Shown: piece by piece, positions 7,139 to 15,084 of the stretch
How the letters are laid out: every line of letters starts with the position of its first letter
Numbering within the stretch: the stretch's first letter is position 1
Source: Eubacteriales bacterium
Lineage (GTDB): Bacteria > Bacillota > Clostridia > Oscillospirales > CAG-272
Reading direction: 5' to 3'
Assembly (NCBI GenBank): GCA_045632925.1
Contig: JAZQXP010000057.1
Span: 1,126-65,125 of the forward strand
Length of the DNA stretch: 64,000 nt
Made by a program: the position numbers and the translations under genes
Notes under the pieces: generated by a model
What the model was told of the DNA's origin: nothing
The model's database searches: none
The model's input: only the letters and a program-made list of their open reading frames with translations

Positions 7139-7606
7139 CTAAGAAAGCATACCCTCTTGCTCCTTCGCGTGCCGAGCTTCATCAGCCGCGAGCTTTGAGA
7201 AGAGCGATGCTGCCGCAAGGTCGCCGCAGCGTTCGGCTATTGCGGCGAGTCTGCGGTAGTTTTCCGAGGCGCGCCTTTCGTCCATAATGTTGTTCTTCAG
7301 CGCACGCGTAGCGGCGACGGGCGCGCGGCTGTCGCGATCCTCGCAAAGATTAATCCTGCCCGAGTTGCGGACGGCACTCCGCTCGGCGGGATCGCATCCG
7401 AGTCGGAGGATCAGCTCGCCGAGAGAACGGTGATGGTGCATCTCCTCCATGGCGAGCCGCTCAAAATACTCGGAAAGCTCGGGCAGGGCATCGGCAAAAA
7501 CTATCGATAAGTAAAGATATTCGGAGATCGAATTGAGCTCGCCCGCGCGTGCCCTTGCAGCTTCGTTTGCAAGCGGAATATTTTTCTGATGTGAATTGTT
7601 TGTCAT
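7139..7606 (-). CDS. Ferritin-like / rubrerythrin-type di-metal protein (possibly spore-coat associated)
   Basis: Paired ExxH motifs (EEMHH, DEARH) and GELNSISEYLY. Confidence 0.7.
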   Translation of the reverse strand: MTNNSHQKNIPLANEAARARAGELNSISEYLYLSIVFADALPELSEYFERLAMEEMHHHRSLGELILRLGCDPAERSAVRNSGRINLCEDRDSRAPVAATRALKNNIMDERRASENYRRLAAIAERCGDLAAASLFSKLAADEARHAKEQEGMLS

Positions 7607-7788
7607 CTTTCAGTCCTCACAAATATGTTTTCATCAACAGTTTATGCCCCGCGCGCGGATCGGTTAATCAATTCCGAATAAAATATTAAAAAAACACGAA
7701 AAAGTTTTGAAATTCCTATTGACAATCGCGTGACCGTATGTTATAATTTGAATAGTGAAATTTTAATACCTTGAAAGGATTAAATAAA

Positions 7789-8739
7789 ATGGATATTACC
7801 TCTGTTGCGAGTCTTTCCGCAAATATCACAGAAAACGTGAGCCGCGTTATCTTCGGTAAGAAGCGCGAGATCGAGCTTATTGTCATCTCGCTCCTTGCGG
7901 GCGGACACATTCTCCTCGACGATATCCCCGGAACGGGCAAGACCACGCTCGCGCGTGCGCTTGCGAAGTCGATCTCGGGCGACGTGAAGAGAATTCAATT
8001 CACTCCCGACCTGCTCCCCTCCGACATCACGGGAATCAATTACTTTGACCAAAAGACCTCGGATTTCGTATTTCGTCCGGGTCCCGTTTTCACGAATATC
8101 CTCATTGCCGACGAGATCAACCGTACCACACCGCGAACCCAGTCGGCTCTTCTTGAATGTATGGGAGAGAAGCAGACTACGGTTGACGGCGTGACCTATA
8201 AGCTCGCGGACACCTTCTTCGTTATCGCAACGCAGAACCCGATCGAGTCGCAGGGCACATTCCCGCTTCCCGAGGCGCAGACCGACAGATTTTTCATGAA
8301 GCTCGCGCTCGGATATCCCGACAGAGATAACGAAATGGCAATGATGGACGTCCACGGCTCGGCGTCGCCTCTTGAGTCTCTCGCGCCCGTTTGCACCTGC
8401 GCCGATATCGTTGCGGCGGGTAATGCGGCTAGGGGAGTGACCGTCACCGAGCCCGTCAAGGATTATATCCTCCGAATCGTTGACGCGACGAGAAACAATA
8501 ACCGCATTTCGATGGGCGTCAGCCCTCGTGGAACTCTCGCGCTTCTGAATGCCGCGCGCATCGCCGCCGCAGTTGACGGACGCGACTATTGTATTCCCGA
8601 TGACGTCCGCCGCGTAGCCGTACCCGTCCTCGCGCACAGAATCATCTCTCGCACACAGAGCACCGTCAGAATGTCGGATACAAACGAAAAGCTGATAGAA
8701 TTCGTGCTCGATTCGGTAGAAGCGCCCGTCGGTCGCTGA
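7789..8739 (+). CDS. moxR: MoxR family AAA+ ATPase
   Basis: GHILLDDIPGTGKT, RIQFTPDLLPSDITG, ADEINR, ATQNPIE, FPLPEAQTDRF, SPRG. Start set at ATG 7789. Confidence 0.95.
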   Translation: MDITSVASLSANITENVSRVIFGKKREIELIVISLLAGGHILLDDIPGTGKTTLARALAKSISGDVKRIQFTPDLLPSDITGINYFDQKTSDFVFRPGPVFTNILIADEINRTTPRTQSALLECMGEKQTTVDGVTYKLADTFFVIATQNPIESQGTFPLPEAQTDRFFMKLALGYPDRDNEMAMMDVHGSASPLESLAPVCTCADIVAAGNAARGVTVTEPVKDYILRIVDATRNNNRISMGVSPRGTLALLNAARIAAAVDGRDYCIPDDVRRVAVPVLAHRIISRTQSTVRMSDTNEKLIEFVLDSVEAPVGR

Positions 8740-8834
8740 CGCGACCGAGTTAATGTCACGCAAAGCGTGAGTTAATGTTGCCGACGGCAAGTTAAGATCG
8801 CGCAAAGCGCGAGTTAATGTTCGCCTGCGGCGAA
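8729..8834. repeat. Mini-hairpin array A: 5 variable GC hairpins separated by 4 seven-nt linkers (GTTAATG/GTTAAGA)
   Basis: tcggtcgc-tgac-gcgaccga GTTAATG tcacgc-aaa-gcgtga GTTAATG ttgcc-gac-ggcaa GTTAAGA tcgcgc-aaa-gcgcga GTTAATG ttcgcc-tgc-ggcgaa. The first hairpin contains the moxR stop codon. Confidence 0.9.
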
Positions 8835-8870
8835 GACCAATAGGAATTATTTTATTAGAAATAAAAGGCT

Positions 8871-9030
8871 GAAAGTTTTTGAAGATACTTAAGAAACTTT
8901 TTTCAAAAAGTTTCTTAAGTCGAGCTCCGCAGAGCTCGAAATATCTCTTGCGCTTCGAGCCGACTGCGCCCCGCAGGCGGCTCGGAAGGAGTCAAACATT
9001 CCCTCGCGGGGATGTTTGCGCTCCTTCAAC
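8871..9030 (+). repeat. Structured dispersed repeat R, copy 1
   Basis: GAAAGTTTT...CTTGCGCTTC(stem)GGAAGGAGTCAAAC(stem)GTTTGCGCTCCTTCA. Homologous to 10491-10736 (-), 13631-13776 and 37469-37632. Confidence 0.9.
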
Positions 9031-9052
9031 ATTTGACAGAAAGGAAATTTCC

Positions 9053-9517
9053 ATGGGTATATTATTCGAACTGCTGACCTCTCTGGCATTCAGCATTCAT
9101 GCTTTCAGAGATTACAAATCCTATGAAGACGAGATCAACAGCGCGGCGTTCAACGTTTTCAATGAGAAAACACGAAAAACGATCCTTTTGGCAATAAGCT
9201 TTCTTAACTATGCATTTCTAGCCGTGATCTGCGTTATGGCTTGTATAGAAATAGGCTCGCAGATCGATCTATCCGATGCGGCAAGAGACGTAACGCTTGC
9301 TCAGATCCGATCAAATATTCTGATTTACACAGTTGTTATGCCGTTGCTCTATTTCAAAAGAAAAAAGATCGTCCGCGAGCTTGTCCGCGAATTTGAGCAC
9401 GGCCGTACCGAAACCTATTCCGACGCCGAGCTCTACGCCTACGTCCGCGAGCATATCGTCATAACAAAAAAGGAAATGTCGCGGATGCTGAGGACGATCC
9501 GGAAAGATCCTCGTTGA
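9053..9517 (+). CDS. Hypothetical membrane protein
   Basis: AAGGA RBS then ATG 9053; about 3 hydrophobic segments. The upstream extension in the ORF track is repeat R read-through. Confidence 0.65.
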   Translation: MGILFELLTSLAFSIHAFRDYKSYEDEINSAAFNVFNEKTRKTILLAISFLNYAFLAVICVMACIEIGSQIDLSDAARDVTLAQIRSNILIYTVVMPLLYFKRKKIVRELVREFEHGRTETYSDAELYAYVREHIVITKKEMSRMLRTIRKDPR

Positions 9518-9559
9518 CGAACAAATAAACAATTAATCAAAAAATAAGGTGGTATTGTT

Positions 9560-9976
9560 ATGAAAAACTTGATTAAATACGTATGTATAGCTATGATCGT
9601 TCTTGCGGCTTTCAGCGGCTTTTTCGAAGGCTACTTATTACTTCGCTCTTCTATGGGCGCACCCGCGCAGTTTACCATTTCCTTTGTCAACCACATCTTA
9701 ATGCTGGTTGCGGGCATAATGGGACTGAAATTCCGCGATGATGACGAAAGACAAAAGATGCTCGCGGGAATATCGGGAATGCAGACGATCTTCTGCCTGC
9801 TTTCCGTGTTTGTTGACCGTTATTCGATCCTGATAGCTATCAAAACGCTCGGTATCGGTGATTGGCTGTCGATCATTTGCTCGGTCGTTCTTCTTGTTTA
9901 CTATGTTCAGGGTATGATCAGGGTGAAGAAAAAACGTCAGCAGGACGAGTCGGTGACAAATTCAGCAATTAATTAA
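9560..9976 (+). CDS. Hypothetical membrane protein (about 4 TM)
   Basis: AAGGTGG RBS; four hydrophobic helices. Confidence 0.7.
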   Translation: MKNLIKYVCIAMIVLAAFSGFFEGYLLLRSSMGAPAQFTISFVNHILMLVAGIMGLKFRDDDERQKMLAGISGMQTIFCLLSVFVDRYSILIAIKTLGIGDWLSIICSVVLLVYYVQGMIRVKKKRQQDESVTNSAIN

Positions 9977-9985
9977 TATTACGAG

Positions 9986-10132
9986 TCCGTAGGGACCAAC
10001 CTCCTCGGCGGTCCGGACCCAATTGAATTAATGCTGTGTATTTAATCGAGAGATTTTTATTTCAGCTTCTGAATTTAGTCAATGTTATATTATTGTGCGG
10101 CTCGGACCGCCGAGGACGTCGGTCCCTACGGA
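9986..10132. repeat. REPIN-like doublet of GTAG-type REP palindromes
   Basis: TCCGTAGGGACCAACCTCCTCGGCGGTCCG (9986-10015) and an inverted copy (10103-10132, 28/30 identical) around an AT-rich spacer. Confidence 0.85.
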
Positions 10133-10164
10133 TTTTGTCTTTAAAGATTACTAAGGAGTAACAT

Positions 10165-10494
10165 ATGAAGCTCAAAATAATACTACTTTTAACCCTGCTT
10201 CTTATATTGACTCTGACGCTTACCTCTTGCCAAGTGAATTGGTTTGGCGAAAGCTATGACGTGCCGTGGTACGTTGTGGCGATCCCGACGCTGATAATCT
10301 GCGGTATCGCTTTTTTCATAGCGGGCATAAGCATCGCAAAGAAGCTTTACGTCTGCCCAAAATGCGGCAGCGAATTCCATCCCGATTTCTGGCTCGCTAT
10401 GTGCTCGATGCATATCGGCAGCGACAGATATTTCAAATGCCCCAAATGCGGACATAAGGGATTTTGTACGGTTTCAAGAAATAATAAAGAGTGA
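10165..10494 (+). CDS. Small membrane/lipoprotein with C-terminal zinc ribbon
   Basis: AAGGAG RBS; LTSC lipobox-like motif, a TM helix and CPKC...CPKC. Its stop codon lies inside the end of repeat R copy 2. Confidence 0.75.
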   Translation: MKLKIILLLTLLLILTLTLTSCQVNWFGESYDVPWYVVAIPTLIICGIAFFIAGISIAKKLYVCPKCGSEFHPDFWLAMCSMHIGSDRYFKCPKCGHKGFCTVSRNNKE

Positions 10495-10736
10495 AGGAGC
10501 GCAAACCTTCCGAAAAGGAAGGTTTGACTCCTTCCAAACCGCCGGCAGGGACGCCGTCGGTTTGAAGCGCAAGGAAAATTCCGACCTCTGTGGAGCGCGA
10601 CTTAAGGCGTTGCCTTAAGAATCCGTGCGGCTCTGTCGGTTTTCCTTGGAAAACGGCGGTGTTTAGCCGCCGAGGCAGAGTCGTAGCTTGCCGTAGGCAA
10701 GCATAAGCTTCTTGAAAAAGCTTGACCAAAACTTTC
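10491..10736 (-). repeat. Structured dispersed repeat R, copy 2 (inverted, with extra internal hairpins)
   Basis: The reverse complement reads GAAAGTTTTGGTCAAGCTTTTTCAAGAAGCTT...CTTGCGCTTCAAACCG..CGGTTTGGAAGGAGTCAAACCTTCC..GGAAGGTTTGCGCTCCTTCA. Confidence 0.9.
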
Positions 10737-10776
10737 CGCTATAATTGATTTTCGCTCGGCGAAAATCTTCCTTCAT

Positions 10777-10877
10777 TTCGCCGTAGGCGAATCATCATTC
10801 TGCGAAGCAGATCATCATTCACGCGTAGCGTGATCATAATTCCGCCAAAGGCGGATCATCATTCGCCCGAAGGGCGA
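10777..10877. repeat. Mini-hairpin array B: 5 variable GC hairpins separated by 4 seven-nt linkers (TCATCAT/TCATAAT)
   Basis: ttcgcc-gta-ggcgaa TCATCAT tctgc-gaa-gcaga TCATCAT tcacgc-gta-gcgtga TCATAAT tccgcc-aaa-ggcgga TCATCAT tcgccc-gaa-gggcga. Confidence 0.9.
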
Positions 10878-10898
10878 TTACCCCCAAGGAGGTCCATC

Positions 10899-12161
10899 GT
10901 GCTCTTCATCGCTGTCGGCATTGCCGTCGTAGCCGCGGTGCTCATTCAGTACTTCGTCTATAAGAAAACAGGCTTTTCAAATATCGAATACAGCGCGACG
11001 CTCTCCTCGGGCGAGGTCTTTGAGGGCGATGACGTCTATCTCTATGAGGAGATAAGGAATAACGGCGCGCTCCCGATGCCATATATCAAGATCGATACCG
11101 ATCTGCCCGACGGTATCGTGTTTACCTTGCTCGAGTCGTCCGTGACCGATCCCGGCGGTATCTTCTCGAAGAATATGACCGTCTCGAAGGGCGCGGCTAA
11201 GCGCGAGACCGAACGCCTGCGTAAGATCAAGCATACCTCGTCGATCCAGTCGCTCTTCGTGCTCCGACCCTACGCCTGCATCCGCCGCCGTTGGAGACTC
11301 ACCTGCAAAAAGCGCGGCGACTTTCAACTCAAGGGCGTGCTTGCAACTGCAAGCGACATCCTCGGCATCGGAGTTCACTCCAAGCTCATCGAGCTCTCGA
11401 ATACAGAGCGAAACAGACTGATAGTTCTTCCGCGCCCCGAGGATCTTGCGGGGAATTATACCTCGTCGCGCTACCTTTGCGGCGACATAATTTCTGAGAT
11501 CTGCCCCGTGACCGATCCCTTGCGCCGTTGCGGTGCGCGCGAGTATCTGACGAGCGATCCGATGAGCCGCATCAACTGGAAATCCACCGCGGCACACGGC
11601 AAGCTTATGGTCAACATCGAGGAGAAAACGGTGCGCCATCGCTTCTCGCTACTGCTGAATATGTCCTCGAGACAGATCGAAAAATTCGACGTCCCCTCCG
11701 ACCCCGCGGCGATCGAGCGATGCATCACGCTCTGCACCTCGATCCTCGACAGAATTGCGGCGGAGGACGTTCCCGTGAAATTCTTTTCGAACTATCCGCC
11801 CGAGGATATGAAGGAATTCGGCGGCGAGGCTGTCTCGGATGATGAGATCGGGCAGAAGGTCGGCGTCTGCGGACCCTTCCGCGGCTCGCGCGATATGATC
11901 TATGCGCTTCGTATGCTTGCAATGCTGAAAATGAAGATCTCGACCCCGATCGACCGCGTCTTCGATCACATCGTTGCCCATCCCGAGCTCTACCGCGAAA
12001 ACGAAAACATGATTATCGTAACGTCATACATCGATCGCAGAATGATGAATCTGCGCGATGCGCTTGCCGCCGAGGGTGTCCGCGTGATCTTCTACGTTGC
12101 AACGACACGCAACGAGGTCGGCGCGCTCAGCGAGGAAAATGACGTTTATTTCCGAGTTTAA
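10899..12161 (+). CDS. DUF58 (VWA-like) protein, MoxR partner
   Basis: GTG start after AAGGAGG; N-terminal TM; KRGDF, GAREYLTSDPMSRINWKSTAAHGKLMV DUF58 signature. Confidence 0.9.
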   Translation: MLFIAVGIAVVAAVLIQYFVYKKTGFSNIEYSATLSSGEVFEGDDVYLYEEIRNNGALPMPYIKIDTDLPDGIVFTLLESSVTDPGGIFSKNMTVSKGAAKRETERLRKIKHTSSIQSLFVLRPYACIRRRWRLTCKKRGDFQLKGVLATASDILGIGVHSKLIELSNTERNRLIVLPRPEDLAGNYTSSRYLCGDIISEICPVTDPLRRCGAREYLTSDPMSRINWKSTAAHGKLMVNIEEKTVRHRFSLLLNMSSRQIEKFDVPSDPAAIERCITLCTSILDRIAAEDVPVKFFSNYPPEDMKEFGGEAVSDDEIGQKVGVCGPFRGSRDMIYALRMLAMLKMKISTPIDRVFDHIVAHPELYRENENMIIVTSYIDRRMMNLRDALAAEGVRVIFYVATTRNEVGALSEENDVYFRV

Positions 12162-12171
12162 GGAGGTAAAA

Positions 12172-13626
12172 ATGAGAACAAAAAATAAGAATACCTCCCG
12201 GATCAGCAACCCGAGCTTTACCATCCTCGGCTTCCTCGGCGTTTACTTCGTGGTCTGTGCCGCGATCGCGCCCTTTGTGGCGTACGGATTCCTCCAAAAT
12301 CTCGCGGTTTTTGCGCTGATATTCATACTTATGGCGTTTGGATATTTCCTGCAAGCGGGAGTCAGCGCGGCAACGGGCTTCAAGCGAGAGCTTGAGACAC
12401 GCGCCTACGAGCCCGAGTATAAGTATTTCAAGCAAAACCGCGCCTTTCCTGTCTGGGTCATCGCGCTGATCCTTTCGGTCTTTGTCAGCAAGCTGACAGA
12501 TATGTACCTTTTCGAGCGATCAAAGCAACCGACCGTGGTATACGATCCCGATTCGATCCTTCCTTTCCTTGCCGCCGCGACGTTCGTGATCGTCGTTGCG
12601 CTCGGCTCATTCGTATGGTTCTTTCCCTATAACCGAATAATGACGGCAAAGGGACTTTATATCGGCGTGACGGTCAATCTTGTCGTCTTCTCGCTCCATT
12701 CGATGGTCCGCTCACCCGGAGTGGTGACCGTCGGTGTCTGCCTTATCGGCTACGCGTTCTGCGCGCTCGTTGCCGCAAATCAGTATTCGCTCGGCAGAAC
12801 GTATCGCGGCACTATCGTATCCTTTATGACGCCGCAGACGAGAAAATATAATCTCCTCTTGTCCCTCGGACTCGTCGGATTCTTCTGCATCCTGCTCTTT
12901 CTCGCGTACCTGATCGTCAACGGTCTCCGCGTTTGCGTGCTCTTTGTGCTTGCCGCGATAATCCGCGCCTTCAGCGACGAGGACGTAGGCTACACCGAGG
13001 AGGAAGACGAGATCTCATCGAGCCTTTCTGATATGCTCTGGGGCAAGCAGGATGTCGTCAGCTCGGCGAATTACTGGCTTTTCTGGATCTTCGTGGTCTT
13101 TTCGATCATTCTGCTGATCGTCGTTCTTATCCGCCGCCGTGCTGAATTTCAGCGATTCGTCGCGTGGCTGAAGGCTTGGATCGTATCCCTTTTCGAGATC
13201 ATCTGGCTTCCGATACGCGATCAATTCGAGCACGACGATTATTATTTCACCAATTACGTCGACGAGGAGCTGAAGCTCCAGAAAAACGAGCTCAAGGCGA
13301 AGCGCAGAGAAGAAAACCGCGCGCGGATGACCTGGAGTGAATTCAACCTCAGCCTCCGAATGAAAAAGTCGGAGGAGGAAAAATACCGCTTTGCCTACTC
13401 GACCTTCGTTTCACAGCTGCTCAAGATGCCGATGTTCGTGAGAAAATCGGATACACCGCGCAAGATATGCGAGCGACTTACCGCGAGCGGACGCGTGGCG
13501 TCGAAGCAGGAGATCGAAATGATCACCGAAGCCTTCGAGCAGATCGAATTTGCAGACAGACCCGCAACCCCCGAGACCGAAAAGGCACTCGACGCGCTTT
13601 GCGATAAGATAAGAGAGAATATGTAA
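12172..13626 (+). CDS. Polytopic membrane protein with a DUF4129-like C-terminus (third gene of the moxR operon)
   Basis: AGGAGG RBS; about 9 TM segments; C-terminal KSDTPRKI...ITEAFEQIEF resembles DUF4129. Confidence 0.7.
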   Translation: MRTKNKNTSRISNPSFTILGFLGVYFVVCAAIAPFVAYGFLQNLAVFALIFILMAFGYFLQAGVSAATGFKRELETRAYEPEYKYFKQNRAFPVWVIALILSVFVSKLTDMYLFERSKQPTVVYDPDSILPFLAAATFVIVVALGSFVWFFPYNRIMTAKGLYIGVTVNLVVFSLHSMVRSPGVVTVGVCLIGYAFCALVAANQYSLGRTYRGTIVSFMTPQTRKYNLLLSLGLVGFFCILLFLAYLIVNGLRVCVLFVLAAIIRAFSDEDVGYTEEEDEISSSLSDMLWGKQDVVSSANYWLFWIFVVFSIILLIVVLIRRRAEFQRFVAWLKAWIVSLFEIIWLPIRDQFEHDDYYFTNYVDEELKLQKNELKAKRREENRARMTWSEFNLSLRMKKSEEEKYRFAYSTFVSQLLKMPMFVRKSDTPRKICERLTASGRVASKQEIEMITEAFEQIEFADRPATPETEKALDALCDKIRENM

Positions 13627-13630
13627 AGAG

Positions 13631-13776
13631 GAAAGTTTTGATCAAACTTTTTCAAAAGTTTGCGGAGCTCGAGGCAGAGCCTCGAAATACTTCTGCGCTT
13701 CGAACCGACTGCGCCCCTGCAGGCGGTTCGGAAGGAGTCAAACCTTCCCTTATCGGAAGGTTTGTGCTCCTTCAAC
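13631..13776 (+). repeat. Structured dispersed repeat R, copy 3
   Basis: GAAAGTTTTGATCAAACTTTTTCAAAAGTTTG...TGCGCTTCGAACCG..CGGTTCGGAAGGAGTCAAACCTTCC..GGAAGGTTTGTGCTCCTTCAAC. Confidence 0.9.
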
Positions 13777-13827: not shown

Positions 13828-14397
13828 ATGAAAGACCTTCCAAATGATCTGAAATCCCATATCAGCCGAGTGATCTTGAAGAGAGCGATCCCCTGCGCGA
13901 TACTGCTTGCGGCGTGCGGTGCTTTGCTTTTCTTCCTCGGCGAGCGAATATTCAATATGGACAACGTGCAGATGCGGATATTCTGCTACATCGTCGTTAT
14001 GCTGATCCCCTTTGTCGTGACGGGTGTGCCGATGAAGCTCATTGACCGAACCTATTGCGGCGAGGTCATCGAAGCGAGAGTGAAGAGGACCGTTGATAAC
14101 GAGTCCTACGTCAAGCCCACACTCGAGCATATGTACTTCAAAAACACCGTCTACCTCGACGTCCGTCTCGATAACGGCAAGGAGATCACGGTCAAGGCTT
14201 ACGAGGGCAGGGACGACGATCTGAATCCATATTTTTATCATAAGGGCGACCGAGTTTTCCACCTCTACGGCTCGAAATACACGATAGTTCTGCCCTCCGA
14301 GACCGCGAACGCTGTCCGTTGTCCCGTTTGCGGTATCAAAAATCTCAGTGAAAACGGAAAATGTGCCGATTGCGGGCATACTTTGGTAACAAAATAA
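13828..14397 (+). CDS. Hypothetical membrane protein with C-terminal zinc ribbon
   Basis: Two TM helices; CPVC...CADC at the C-terminus. Confidence 0.7.
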   Translation: MKDLPNDLKSHISRVILKRAIPCAILLAACGALLFFLGERIFNMDNVQMRIFCYIVVMLIPFVVTGVPMKLIDRTYCGEVIEARVKRTVDNESYVKPTLEHMYFKNTVYLDVRLDNGKEITVKAYEGRDDDLNPYFYHKGDRVFHLYGSKYTIVLPSETANAVRCPVCGIKNLSENGKCADCGHTLVTK

Positions 14398-14470: not shown

Positions 14471-14713
14471 ATGAATATTGATACCAAAAGGATAGTGTCG
14501 ATCTCCGAGGCGAATCAGAATTTCTCGCGTGTTGCAAGAATGACTGACAAGCACGGCGAGATCTATATTTTCAAGAACAACAAGCCGAAGTATAAATTGG
14601 TCGATATAGAAAGCTGCACAGACATCGAAATGACCGACGATGAAAAGATCGATTTCGTTGCCGCAAGGATCCTGAAGCTTTACCGTCCTGCGTTTGAGGA
14701 GCTTGCAAAATGA
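14471..14713 (+). CDS. phd: Phd/YefM family antitoxin
   Basis: IVSISEANQNFSRVAR...IYIFKNNKPKY; overlaps the doc start (ATGA). Confidence 0.9.
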   Translation: MNIDTKRIVSISEANQNFSRVARMTDKHGEIYIFKNNKPKYKLVDIESCTDIEMTDDEKIDFVAARILKLYRPAFEELAK

Positions 14714-15084
14714 TCAGATTGAGTAACGAAAAGGTTTTGCTTTTGCACAGGCTCATCACCGAGGAAACGGGAGGCGACCCGAACGTACGCGATATCGCTC
14801 TGCTTGACAGTGCGCTTGAATCGGCGTTTGCGACCTTTGACGGCGTCGAGCTCTACCCGACGAAGCAGGAAAAGGGCGCGCGGATCGGTTATTCGCTTAT
14901 ATCGAACCACGCTTTTGTTGACGGAAATAAGCGAATAGGAATGTTCGTGATGATGATCTTCCTTGAGATCAACGGGATCGTGATCCGTCCGAGCAACGAG
15001 GAATTCGCCCGCGTCGGACTTGCCGTAGCGGCGGGAGAGATGAAGTACGCCGATCTTCTTGAATGGATTCTTGAAAATGAATAA
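14710..15084 (+). CDS. doc: Doc (Fic/Doc) toxin
   Basis: LLDSAL...FDGVELYPT and HAFVDGNKRIG Doc motif. Confidence 0.92.
   Translation: MIRLSNEKVLLLHRLITEETGGDPNVRDIALLDSALESAFATFDGVELYPTKQEKGARIGYSLISNHAFVDGNKRIGMFVMMIFLEINGIVIRPSNEEFARVGLAVAAGEMKYADLLEWILENE

Follow-up and report, generated by a model that had tools for sequence, protein, structure and literature searches.

Our results indicate that the segment separating moxR from a DUF58-like gene in a 64,000-nucleotide stretch of Eubacteriales bacterium DNA (GenBank assembly GCA_045632925.1, contig JAZQXP010000057.1, positions 1,126 to 65,125; the window hereafter) is probably a variable gene island colonised by independent families of dispersed structured repeats, rather than a palindrome-delimited cassette. 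That is, a lineage-specific, hypervariable island of small membrane-protein genes (here orf1, orf2 and orf3, the cargo) would sit between the two operon genes, and every non-coding gap would be filled by one of three unrelated repeat families, namely hairpin arrays akin to the Gut-1 RNA, a mosaic repeat that we call R, and a GTAG-headed doublet of repetitive extragenic palindromic (REP) units of the REPIN type. On the plus strand the order, based on the open reading frame (ORF) listing, is moxR, array A, R+, orf1, orf2, REP doublet, orf3, R-, array B, DUF58-like gene and DUF4129 gene (Table 1). The initial annotation of the window had reported the elements from moxR to the DUF58-like gene, all of which were found in their places, and had seen in them nested palindromes that delimit and mobilise a gene-capture cassette. 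The mirror symmetry behind that proposal arises because two array-then-R composites lie in opposite orientation, each with its array end abutting an operon gene (at the moxR stop codon or at the ribosome-binding site of the DUF58-like gene) and its R end facing the island. On this reading the bracket is a common composite repeat present twice, together with a REPIN, and not a new gene-capture system.

We compared 38 genomes of the genus (G numbers denote genomes, L numbers loci and C numbers contigs). The source draft genome, G000, comprises 2.46 Mb in 104 contigs, many of them ending in repeats, and is 77.8% complete. DUF58-like homologues were present in 19 of the 24 congeners sampled, and in 11 congeners moxR and the DUF58-like gene are adjacent (9-125 nt apart; 290 nt in G017), with no cargo homologues and no arrays at these empty sites. 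The earlier view of the segment as an insertion is borne out by these junctions, and different cargo between the same flanks was likewise found in close relatives. In the sub-clade that bears R, the gap is occupied by a variable number (two to at least six) of small membrane-protein genes, which belong to about seven families of small proteins: orf1-orf2-orf3 in G000 and G005; orf1-orf2-orfX-orf3 in G010; X1a-X1b-orfX'-orf1-orf2 with a 23-residue orf3 remnant in G042; a start as in G042, plus orfX-orf3, in G006; X1-X2 in G001, L054 and L056; X1-X2-orfX'-orf3 in G003; and X2 (G043) or an orfX-like fragment (L059), then an R module, then orf3. Identity of orf1 is 48-57% in relatives whose flanking genes are 87-98% identical. 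Homologues of orf2 occur in five of the 38 genomes, two of them at other loci, and those of orf3 in 20, some without the moxR/DUF58-like operon and without repeats; no R element or array lies near the orf2 and orf3 homologues at other loci. Both orf3 and orfX bear zinc ribbons, and the moxR/DUF58 gap in this one sub-clade emerges as a hot spot at which genes for small membrane proteins and zinc-ribbon proteins are shuffled.

The repeats do not track this cargo. Array A, with the same five stems, is present in three of the ten genomes with a visible moxR end (G000, G042 and G005) and absent from G010, G001, G018, G003, L054, L056 and L057. In most occupied genomes the moxR stop is followed by R+, directly so in G010, G001, L054, L056 and L057, and the distance from the end of R to the first cargo gene is about 22 nt whichever gene stands there; in G018 and G003, an orf1-like gene lies 31 nt after moxR with no left-border repeat. 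The same three genes as in the window are found in G005, yet without R- and without the REPIN, the REPIN being absent also from G010 and from metagenome contigs, and R- also from G001, L054, L056 and one metagenome contig. R modules occur inside the island and after the DUF4129 gene as well. Contigs from public metagenome runs (all contigs; the best match carries 0.27 of the sampled words) include joints that skip R- (10466>10743) or replace the REPIN (9983>10222), and one low-depth contig from an RNA library, whose cover of the locus is no proof of transcription, drops most of R+ (8844>9016). No joint skipping the whole island, nor any back-joint suggesting a circle, was seen in four public runs, contigs being prone to lose rare forms. 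Genome-wide, only one of the 11 neighbouring array pairs (at most 6 kb apart) faces outward around genes, and this is the moxR/DUF58 locus itself (three others are convergent gene ends); the same holds for one of the 17 neighbouring R pairs. This is the outcome that the initial annotation had named in advance as refuting its cassette, here in an assembly that is 77.8% complete and broken at repeats. Taken together, our results show that the repeats are dispersed, polar and structured and are present or absent independently of the cargo, and that island content differs among relatives.

The middle doublet is a REPIN in build, with GTAG heads, imperfect palindromes and two inverted units whose arms (9986-10015 and 10103-10132) are 93% complementary, and it is one of 11 full doublets in G000 (window 9989-10129), where 31 REP units were found, 31 of 31 headed by GTAG. 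In these traits, and in an inverted pair of about 141 nt, it resembles the REP/REPIN elements of the literature (Nunvar 2010, PMC2817692; Di Nocera 2013, PMC3733652), which, in the portions of these papers available, are reported as GTAG repeats from Proteobacteria, Cyanobacteria, Chloroflexi and the Planctomycetes-Verrucomicrobia-Chlamydiae (PVC) group, with no mention there of Firmicutes/Clostridia. A homologue of the REP-associated tyrosine transposase (RAYT) is encoded on contig C66 of G000 by a 191-aa ORF with an HxH motif region, which matches PF01797 (Y1-transposase) at 27.7 bits (cut-off 23) and has as its best NCBIfam match the REP-associated tyrosine transposase NF047646 (55.5 bits; cut-off 80). 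Given a REPIN-type element and this homologue, the statement that the doublet is acted on in trans by a RAYT is reasonable, and the enzyme concerned probably lies outside the window. A perfect doublet copy starts 2 nt upstream of the C66 gene and no REP follows downstream, where a cognate RAYT gene would be flanked by two inverted REPs. A second gene, RAYT-2 (233 aa, 36.6% identical to the C66 copy; G000:C25:23463-24161, that is L036:1192-1893, minus strand), sits between ordinary genes with unique flanks and without REPs.

The C66 copy abuts no repeat other than the GTAG REPIN; hairpin arrays and R elements are not next to either RAYT gene and lack a GTAG/CGTC tag. RAYT homologues were detected in eight of the 38 genomes, several with internal stops, and none was found in the array-rich genomes G042, G005, G001, G018, G003, G014, G022 and G024; RAYT was rejected as the enzyme of the arrays, showing neither adjacency nor co-occurrence. 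That arrays and R are the recombination sites of a non-autonomous gene-capture cassette served in trans by an HUH/RAYT-type enzyme is hardly credible against this record and against their independence of the cargo and an arrangement that is unique in the genome, even though cargo does vary between conserved flanks, G000 does carry two RAYT-family genes, and compensatory change does maintain the hairpin structure. The related statement that no recombinase is encoded in the window stands for the 45 predicted window proteins scanned, among which no integrase or recombinase family was matched, uncalled stretches lying outside that scan. Integron cassettes are small promoterless genes with attC imperfect palindromes that fold single-stranded, served by an integrase whose gene lies with attI next to the cassette array, and variable in content between strains. 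The island is like them in its palindrome-separated small genes and in a content that varies between relatives, and unlike them in that there is no integrase among the 45 proteins and that the repeats are dispersed over contigs and do not follow each gene.

The R family has 57 merged copies in G000 and members in 13 of the 38 genomes. R+ and R- are indeed inverted copies, as had been noted, matching over 59 nt at 81%, 41 nt at 80% and 20 nt at 90% (about 120 nt in total), with the orf3 stop (10492-10494) within the first bases of R-. The gene that follows the third R copy (13828-14397) occupies the place of an orfX-family gene in two close relatives. The outward-facing matching ends of the two inverted copies, the occurrence of both in G000, G010 and G042 (and of R- with at least an R module or R+ end upstream in G006, G003, G018 and G043), the existence of empty sites and the atypical composition of the cargo would suit an island that entered once as a composite bounded by two inverted R elements, arrays, REPIN and deletions having come later. 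We regard this as an unlikely history, since the orf1-like gene of G018 and G003 follows moxR without R, R modules lie inside the island, the arrangement occurs in one of the 17 neighbouring R pairs only, and for the family neither a target-site duplication nor a terminal inverted repeat could be defined and no transposase was associated. R is indel-polymorphic elsewhere, a copy at C64 being missing in G005, although that indel shows TCC microhomology and resembles a microhomology deletion rather than a precise excision.

Several of our results nevertheless weigh against independent colonisation. In the majority of occupied genomes the island lies between inverted R copies, and in the window it contains five repeats in four gaps where about 0.26 would be expected from genome counts, so that repeats and island are associated somehow. 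The cargo is compositionally foreign (GC 0.44-0.45 vs. 0.533 +/- 0.029; codon score about 0 vs. 0.253 +/- 0.092), and hence some vehicle brought it in. Further, neither an R copy nor a hairpin-array match of either linker class was found in the 11 empty-site genomes, and the insertion of the island and the invasion by repeats are therefore not separable in time; for reference, the GTTAAKR pattern was found in 11 of the 38 genomes and the ATGATGA pattern in seven, two of these being coding look-alikes, one of which is the sole pattern match among the empty-site genomes (G020). The source assembly is incomplete and broken at repeats, and further bracketed units may have escaped. An RNA-level role of the repeats finds no echo in terminator-like sites, of which a consensus scan of 7600-11000 gave 7 vs. 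4.4 +/- 2.3 in shuffles, i.e., no excess. With these points weighed, we still favor a variable island colonised by independent repeat families, in which cargo differences would arise by deletion or replacement and not through a repeat-specific recombinase, the changes probably proceeding via recombination between R modules or through the conserved flanks.

The arrays themselves form a genome-wide family of definite structure. Each of arrays A and B contains the five hairpins and four seven-nt linkers originally counted, with perfect stems of 5-8 bp and loops of 3-4 nt, and Tandem Repeats Finder reports period-22 arrays at 8746-8820 and 10777-10873. Array B, the core of which (10777-10877) has the linkers TCATCAT (three times) and TCATAAT, carries in addition a sixth, longer hairpin (10747-10767) at its cargo-side end, linked via a 9-nt spacer. 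The moxR stop codon TGA (8737-8739) sits in the loop of array A hairpin 1, which uses the last moxR codons, and from the end of array B to the GTG start at 10899 there are 21 nt, room only for an AAGGAGG ribosome-binding site; the placement of the moxR and orf3 stops within repeats and of array B before the ribosome-binding site had been described accurately. As to the two arrays being an inverted pair, their polarity is opposite, but they belong to distinct linker classes and only a 15-nt stretch is complementary.

Defining an array as at least three perfect hairpins with near-identical linkers, and as forward the strand that reads ATGATGA or GTTAAGA linkers, we found 45 arrays in G000 vs. 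none in the block-shuffled genome. When units were redefined by linkers alone, by which circularity in the pairing counts is avoided, 106 of the 133 inter-linker segments paired perfectly over at least 5 bp from both ends, vs. 5 of 2660 segments drawn at random from the genome; in a set of 41 distinct 15-nt units, Watson-Crick pairs fill 231 of 246 cells (reached in none of 1000 shuffles), and two to four pair types occur at three inner-middle stem positions. The G000 arrays have 28 distinct stems, all T(C/T)..GC. In 20 of the 45 arrays no more than 15 nt separate the hairpin end from the stop codon of a co-oriented gene, and in 28 no more than 60 nt (in some arrays the stop codon falls inside the first hairpin or linker); the distal end comes this close (15 nt) to a gene boundary of any kind in only three. 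A minority, array B included, are reversed and stand just upstream of a ribosome-binding site, five at 16-60 nt and one at 12 nt from the start codon, counts in which array B is mis-scored because the codon-score gene caller mis-starts the DUF58-like gene (it also misses orf1 and orf3). The distal module consists of a linker-like "(A/G)T(G/T)AAGGT(A/G)", a longer AT-flanked GC hairpin and TTTCGATTT, and an R element often starts directly after it, giving array-then-R composites, for example at C10, C86, C94, C42, C18, C50 and C64. No inverted repeats were found between the two array ends (TTCTG-TCGCGC... and long hairpin + TTTCGATTT), and none of the orthologous sites examined gave a clean filled-vs-empty pair for a whole array. 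Loops on the forward strand are biased (TTC/TAC/TGC 44 vs. GAA 3), an observation that we dropped as proof of strand-specific function because common descent of the units explains it equally.

A few further tandem structures were seen beside these arrays. Longer ones, of at least 10 consecutive units, are present in relatives, with ATGGTTA linkers and a 20-nt period in G010 (C96:1581-1808) and with GTGATAA linkers in G001 (C48:132848-133007 and 142988-143130). In the window, tandem heptamers (AGTGCAG, AATGCAA x9.6, GGACAGT and complements; 24705-24735/24986-25017, 51101-51167/51441-51469 and 62154-62187/62391-62420) form inverted pairs at convergent gene ends and resemble linker-only arrays, filling the slot of a hairpin array, with a stop codon on one side and on the other a module made of a linker-like "AGTTAATGA/AATGAGGTA" and a long hairpin; runs of heptamers were also seen after long hairpins at C18, C50 and C95. 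A 24-nt tandem repeat, GTGGTAATCGGTTCGGTAACCGGA, fits the linker pattern without being a hairpin array (G001:C23:5629-5899, contig ends of G047:C12 and C23, and G048:C80) and is probably a coding or other repeat.

In build, the arrays are kin to Gut-1 (RF01706), which Weinberg et al. (2010; PMC2864571) listed, in the available part of their paper, as found in the human gut only and as likely to be a free-standing non-coding RNA, the seed alignment in the supplement having three hairpins joined by GUGAAAU. In a permissive Rfam scan, array B (minus strand, 10765-10842) aligned end to end with the 77-position model at 24.0 bits (E-value 0.0083 on 201 nt, 0.099 on 2.4 kb), below the gathering score of 50 bits, such that membership by score does not follow; array A gave no match at E<=1, and the whole window has no Rfam match at gathering level. 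G000 has Gut-1 copies above the cut-off at four other loci (50.1-58.2 bits), and those on C93 and C66 share with the A/B-type arrays a distal "GTTAAGGTA/ATGAAGGTG + AATTT(C/G)C...hairpin", degenerate at array A. Like Gut-1, the arrays comprise at least three tandem short GC hairpins with covarying, compensating stems and a constant linker of about 7 nt, and the distal "GTTAAGGTA + AATTTGCC hairpin" is common to the above-cut-off copies and the A/B-type arrays of G000; unlike Gut-1, the linkers of arrays A and B read GUUAAUG/GUUAAGA and AUGAUGA and the scores do not exceed 24 bits. On comparison of sequence and plan, arrays A and B are best described as new linker variants of the Gut-1 kind, below the Rfam threshold and sharing its plan and flanks.

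Across the genus, 30 of the 38 genomes match RF01706 at E<=0.01 (up to 80 matches in one genome) and 26 have copies above 50 bits, vs. one sub-cut-off match and no copy above the cut-off in 14 well-known control genomes. Among the six best matches, all in other genomes, two come after the stop codon of an ORF of 450 aa and two, which represent a single orthologous locus, after tRNA-Leu. At this latter locus, the above-cut-off array stands about 33 nt 3' of tRNA-Leu(TAG) and a terminator-like hairpin, on the same strand (L111:55-244, L112:1501-1691). The arrays differ from Gut-1 as published in being a high-copy interspersed repeat, with related loci in ruminant- and horse-gut genomes, and a full-text literature search found Gut-1 named only by Weinberg et al. 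and in one methods paper, neither giving a host organism or function. Gut-1 gains from these data a host lineage and a genomic behaviour, as a polar repeat present in many copies at the ends of genes of an uncultured genus of gut Clostridia.

Between species, the arrays keep their places and change their linkers. We compared G000 with 352,683 bases of G042 (22 arrays) and 20 stretches of G005 (24 arrays). Of the arrays with both flanks mapping to a single contig of G042, most are matched there by an array at the corresponding position, and at five sites (C52:805, C90:15228, C63:2548, C63:2682 and C72:15419) ATGATGA in G000 corresponds to GTTAAGA in G042, the class-switched arrays retaining the first hairpin, which adjoins the stop codon. 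At the 11 displayed sites of G005, the class was kept at nine and switched at one, and at one the G000 array is a single degenerate hairpin with the retained long hairpin; unit numbers differ at orthologous arrays of G000 and G005 (3 vs. 5; 4 vs. 5). Judged from these G042 and G005 sites, which mostly keep the array while unit number and class vary, the arrays are old residents of their sites, and they would change like minisatellites, by gain and loss of units and by replacement of whole arrays. An orthologous array B is present in all occupied genomes, with other linkers; its class is ATGATGA in G000 and G005 and GTTAAGA in G042, despite DUF58-like proteins that are 98% identical. Counting pairs in aligned array B orthologues was abandoned, the units being reshuffled between genomes.

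Linkers are homogeneous within an array and tend towards a genome-wide "dialect". Counted as triple-linker pattern hits per genome (ATGATGA / GTTAAKR / RTGRTWA), the dialect is 20 / 32 / 0 in G000 and 8 / 30 / 0 in G005, both with array B TCATCAT (ATGATGA); 2 / 41 / 0 in G042, with array B TCTTAAC (GTTAAGA); 0 / 1 / 29, mostly ATGGTTA, in G010, with TAACCAT (ATGGTTA); 0 / 0 / 40, mostly GTGATAA and six of them a coding-like 24-nt repeat, in G001, with TTATCAC/T; and 0 / 20 / 17, the last being ATGATAA, in G018, with TTATCAT. The assignment is ambiguous for G006 and G003, and G043 departs from the pattern. Independent point mutation cannot alter three of seven positions in every linker of an array, and the arrays must therefore have been replaced or converted as wholes. 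Such concerted, genome-specific change at conserved sites points to either a trans-acting partner or an unusual conversion process; RAYT is unlikely as its driver, judging by its occurrence in eight of 38 genomes, its several broken copies and its absence from several array-rich genomes.

The end of moxR differs between genomes with and without array A. Without array A, moxR ends in ATC/GTA/ATT GGA CGA/AGA TAA, and in the three genomes with array A it ends in (G/A)TC GGT CGC TGA, which supplies one side (the 5' arm, TCGGTCGC) of a hairpin of 8 bp that has the stop codon in its loop. Three changes in nine bases, all synonymous or stop-to-stop and all towards pairing, separate the two forms, which suggests that either the first hairpin was fitted onto the coding end of moxR or a conversion overwrote that end. 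A REP close to a stop codon is reported to impair translation termination in Escherichia coli.

More speculatively, the arrays might not be passive minisatellites but be written and rewritten by trans-acting machinery that recognises the 7-nt linker, one candidate being a single-strand hairpin transposase that adds 22-nt units; we give this possibility a modest chance at best. Units of "hairpin + linker" would be inserted beside an existing linker, with seeding at stop-codon-like sequences. If true, this would explain why arrays are shuffles of a small stock of stems, why they grow up to stops and ribosome-binding sites, and why an orthologous array (A and B are examples) stays where it is as its linkers change with the dialect of the genome; arrays made of heptamers alone, found in the same slot, would be repetitions of the linker that lack hairpins.

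As to function, the arrays would act in the transcript, as stable stacks of hairpins after stop codons or between cistrons, and from their structure and placement they may protect 3' ends or attenuate read-through and translation. A stronger version, in which the array-R composites are selected regulatory insulators (a terminator or processing site with new start signals) uncoupling island expression from moxR and the DUF58-like gene, could draw on composites that span the gap from end to end, their limits coinciding with the stop codon and the ribosome-binding site, on the constant distance of R from whichever cargo gene comes first, and on a predicted RNA fold of 8725-9056 at -141.9 kcal/mol (z = -9.1). 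Yet the same operon context exists without array A in G010, G001 and others and without R- in G005, and there is no excess of terminator-like sites, nor of promoter-like sites over shuffles in the consensus scan of 7600-11000, which makes insulation quite improbable.

Three described systems invite comparison, each as far as the available portions of the cited papers go. Bacterial interspersed mosaic elements (BIMEs; clusters of REPs, PMC2817692) likewise have regularly spaced palindromic units, conserved linkers and mosaic intergenic modules; they are made of units of about 35 nt in alternating orientation, unlike the head-to-tail array units of 13-17 nt with a 22-nt period, stems that differ within an array and one polarity per array (from loop bias and distal module). 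Pneumococcal BOX elements, boxA-(boxB)n-boxC (Croucher 2011, PMC3049150), have a predicted RNA fold and a proposed role in 3'-end stabilisation, and share with the arrays fixed end modules, variable internal tandem modules and a strain-to-strain length variation that grows with module number; compared by description, the arrays differ in that no terminal inverted repeats or target duplications were found and in that the internal units are themselves hairpins with differing stems. Hairpin clusters proposed as intrinsic terminators (Gupta & Pal 2021, PMC8355165) resemble the arrays in having several hairpins spaced by less than 15 nt, located in the 80 nt that follow a stop codon. Those clusters are unrelated, locus-specific hairpins, unlike a repeat family with constant linkers, up to six or more units and additional placement antisense upstream of genes.

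Table 1. Genes and repeats of the moxR/DUF58 locus, in window coordinates (TM, transmembrane).
Feature	Position	Strand	Remarks
moxR (AAA_3 ATPase), first gene of conserved operon	7789..8739	+	PF07726 205.7 bits, and AAA_lid_2
Array A: 5 perfect hairpins, four 7-nt linkers (GTTAATG x3, GTTAAGA), forward polarity	8729..8834	+	
Degenerate distal module of array A (GACCAATAGGAATTATTTTATTAG...)	8835..8859	+	slot of "GTTTAAGGTA + long hairpin" in other arrays
R+: mosaic multi-hairpin repeat, terminal GGAAGGAG...CTCCTTC hairpin	about 8860..9030	+	ends 22 nt before orf1 ATG
orf1, 154 aa, N-terminal TM helices	9053..9517	+	no Pfam/NCBIfam match; GC 0.454, codon score -0.016
orf2, 138 aa, multi-TM	9560..9976	+	no family match
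REPIN doublet, two GTAG-headed REP units	9986..10132	.	units 9989-10015 (+), 10103-10129 (-)
orf3, 109 aa, signal/TM segment and CxxC...CxxC zinc ribbon	10165..10494	+	sub-threshold zinc-ribbon matches only
R-: second R copy, inverted vs. R+, extra internal insert	10490..10746	-	covers orf3 stop
Array B: distal long hairpin, TTCCTTCAT, then 5 hairpins	10747..10877	-	forward polarity on minus strand
DUF58-like gene, second conserved operon gene, 420 aa, GTG start	10899..12161	+	PF01882 13.3 bits, below cut-off 23.4
DUF4129 membrane protein, third operon gene	12172..13626	+	PF13559 26.6 bits
Third R copy, directly after DUF4129 gene	13644..13776	+	precedes gene 13828-14397; same placement in relatives

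Regarding the genes themselves, the cargo proteins gave no NCBIfam match over cut-off, orf1 and orf2 matched only unnamed clusters in the Protein Atlas (scores 0.82 and 0.90), and viral contigs searched with orf3 and orf2 yielded no relatives. The name DUF58 given to the partner of moxR is right in that DUF58 is its best Pfam match and too firm in that the score is below the cut-off; of eight orthologues, two reach 19 and 22.6 bits and six have no match, and a PDB sequence search with the protein returned none. A sigma-70-like promoter matching the consensus at 12 of 12 positions lies upstream of moxR (7719-7747). An antisense ORF of 341 aa (7780-8805, minus strand) spans all of moxR and exceeds it in length; it is probably spurious, since codon scoring prefers moxR. 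In G000, moxR has paralogues at C81:45096-47002 (53% identical) and C52:52566-53468 (44%), the C81 copy being followed by a 25%-identical DUF58-like gene. Finally, downstream of the operon, after the gene at 13828-14397, the window encodes a Phd/YefM antitoxin and Fic/Doc toxin pair (14471-15084).

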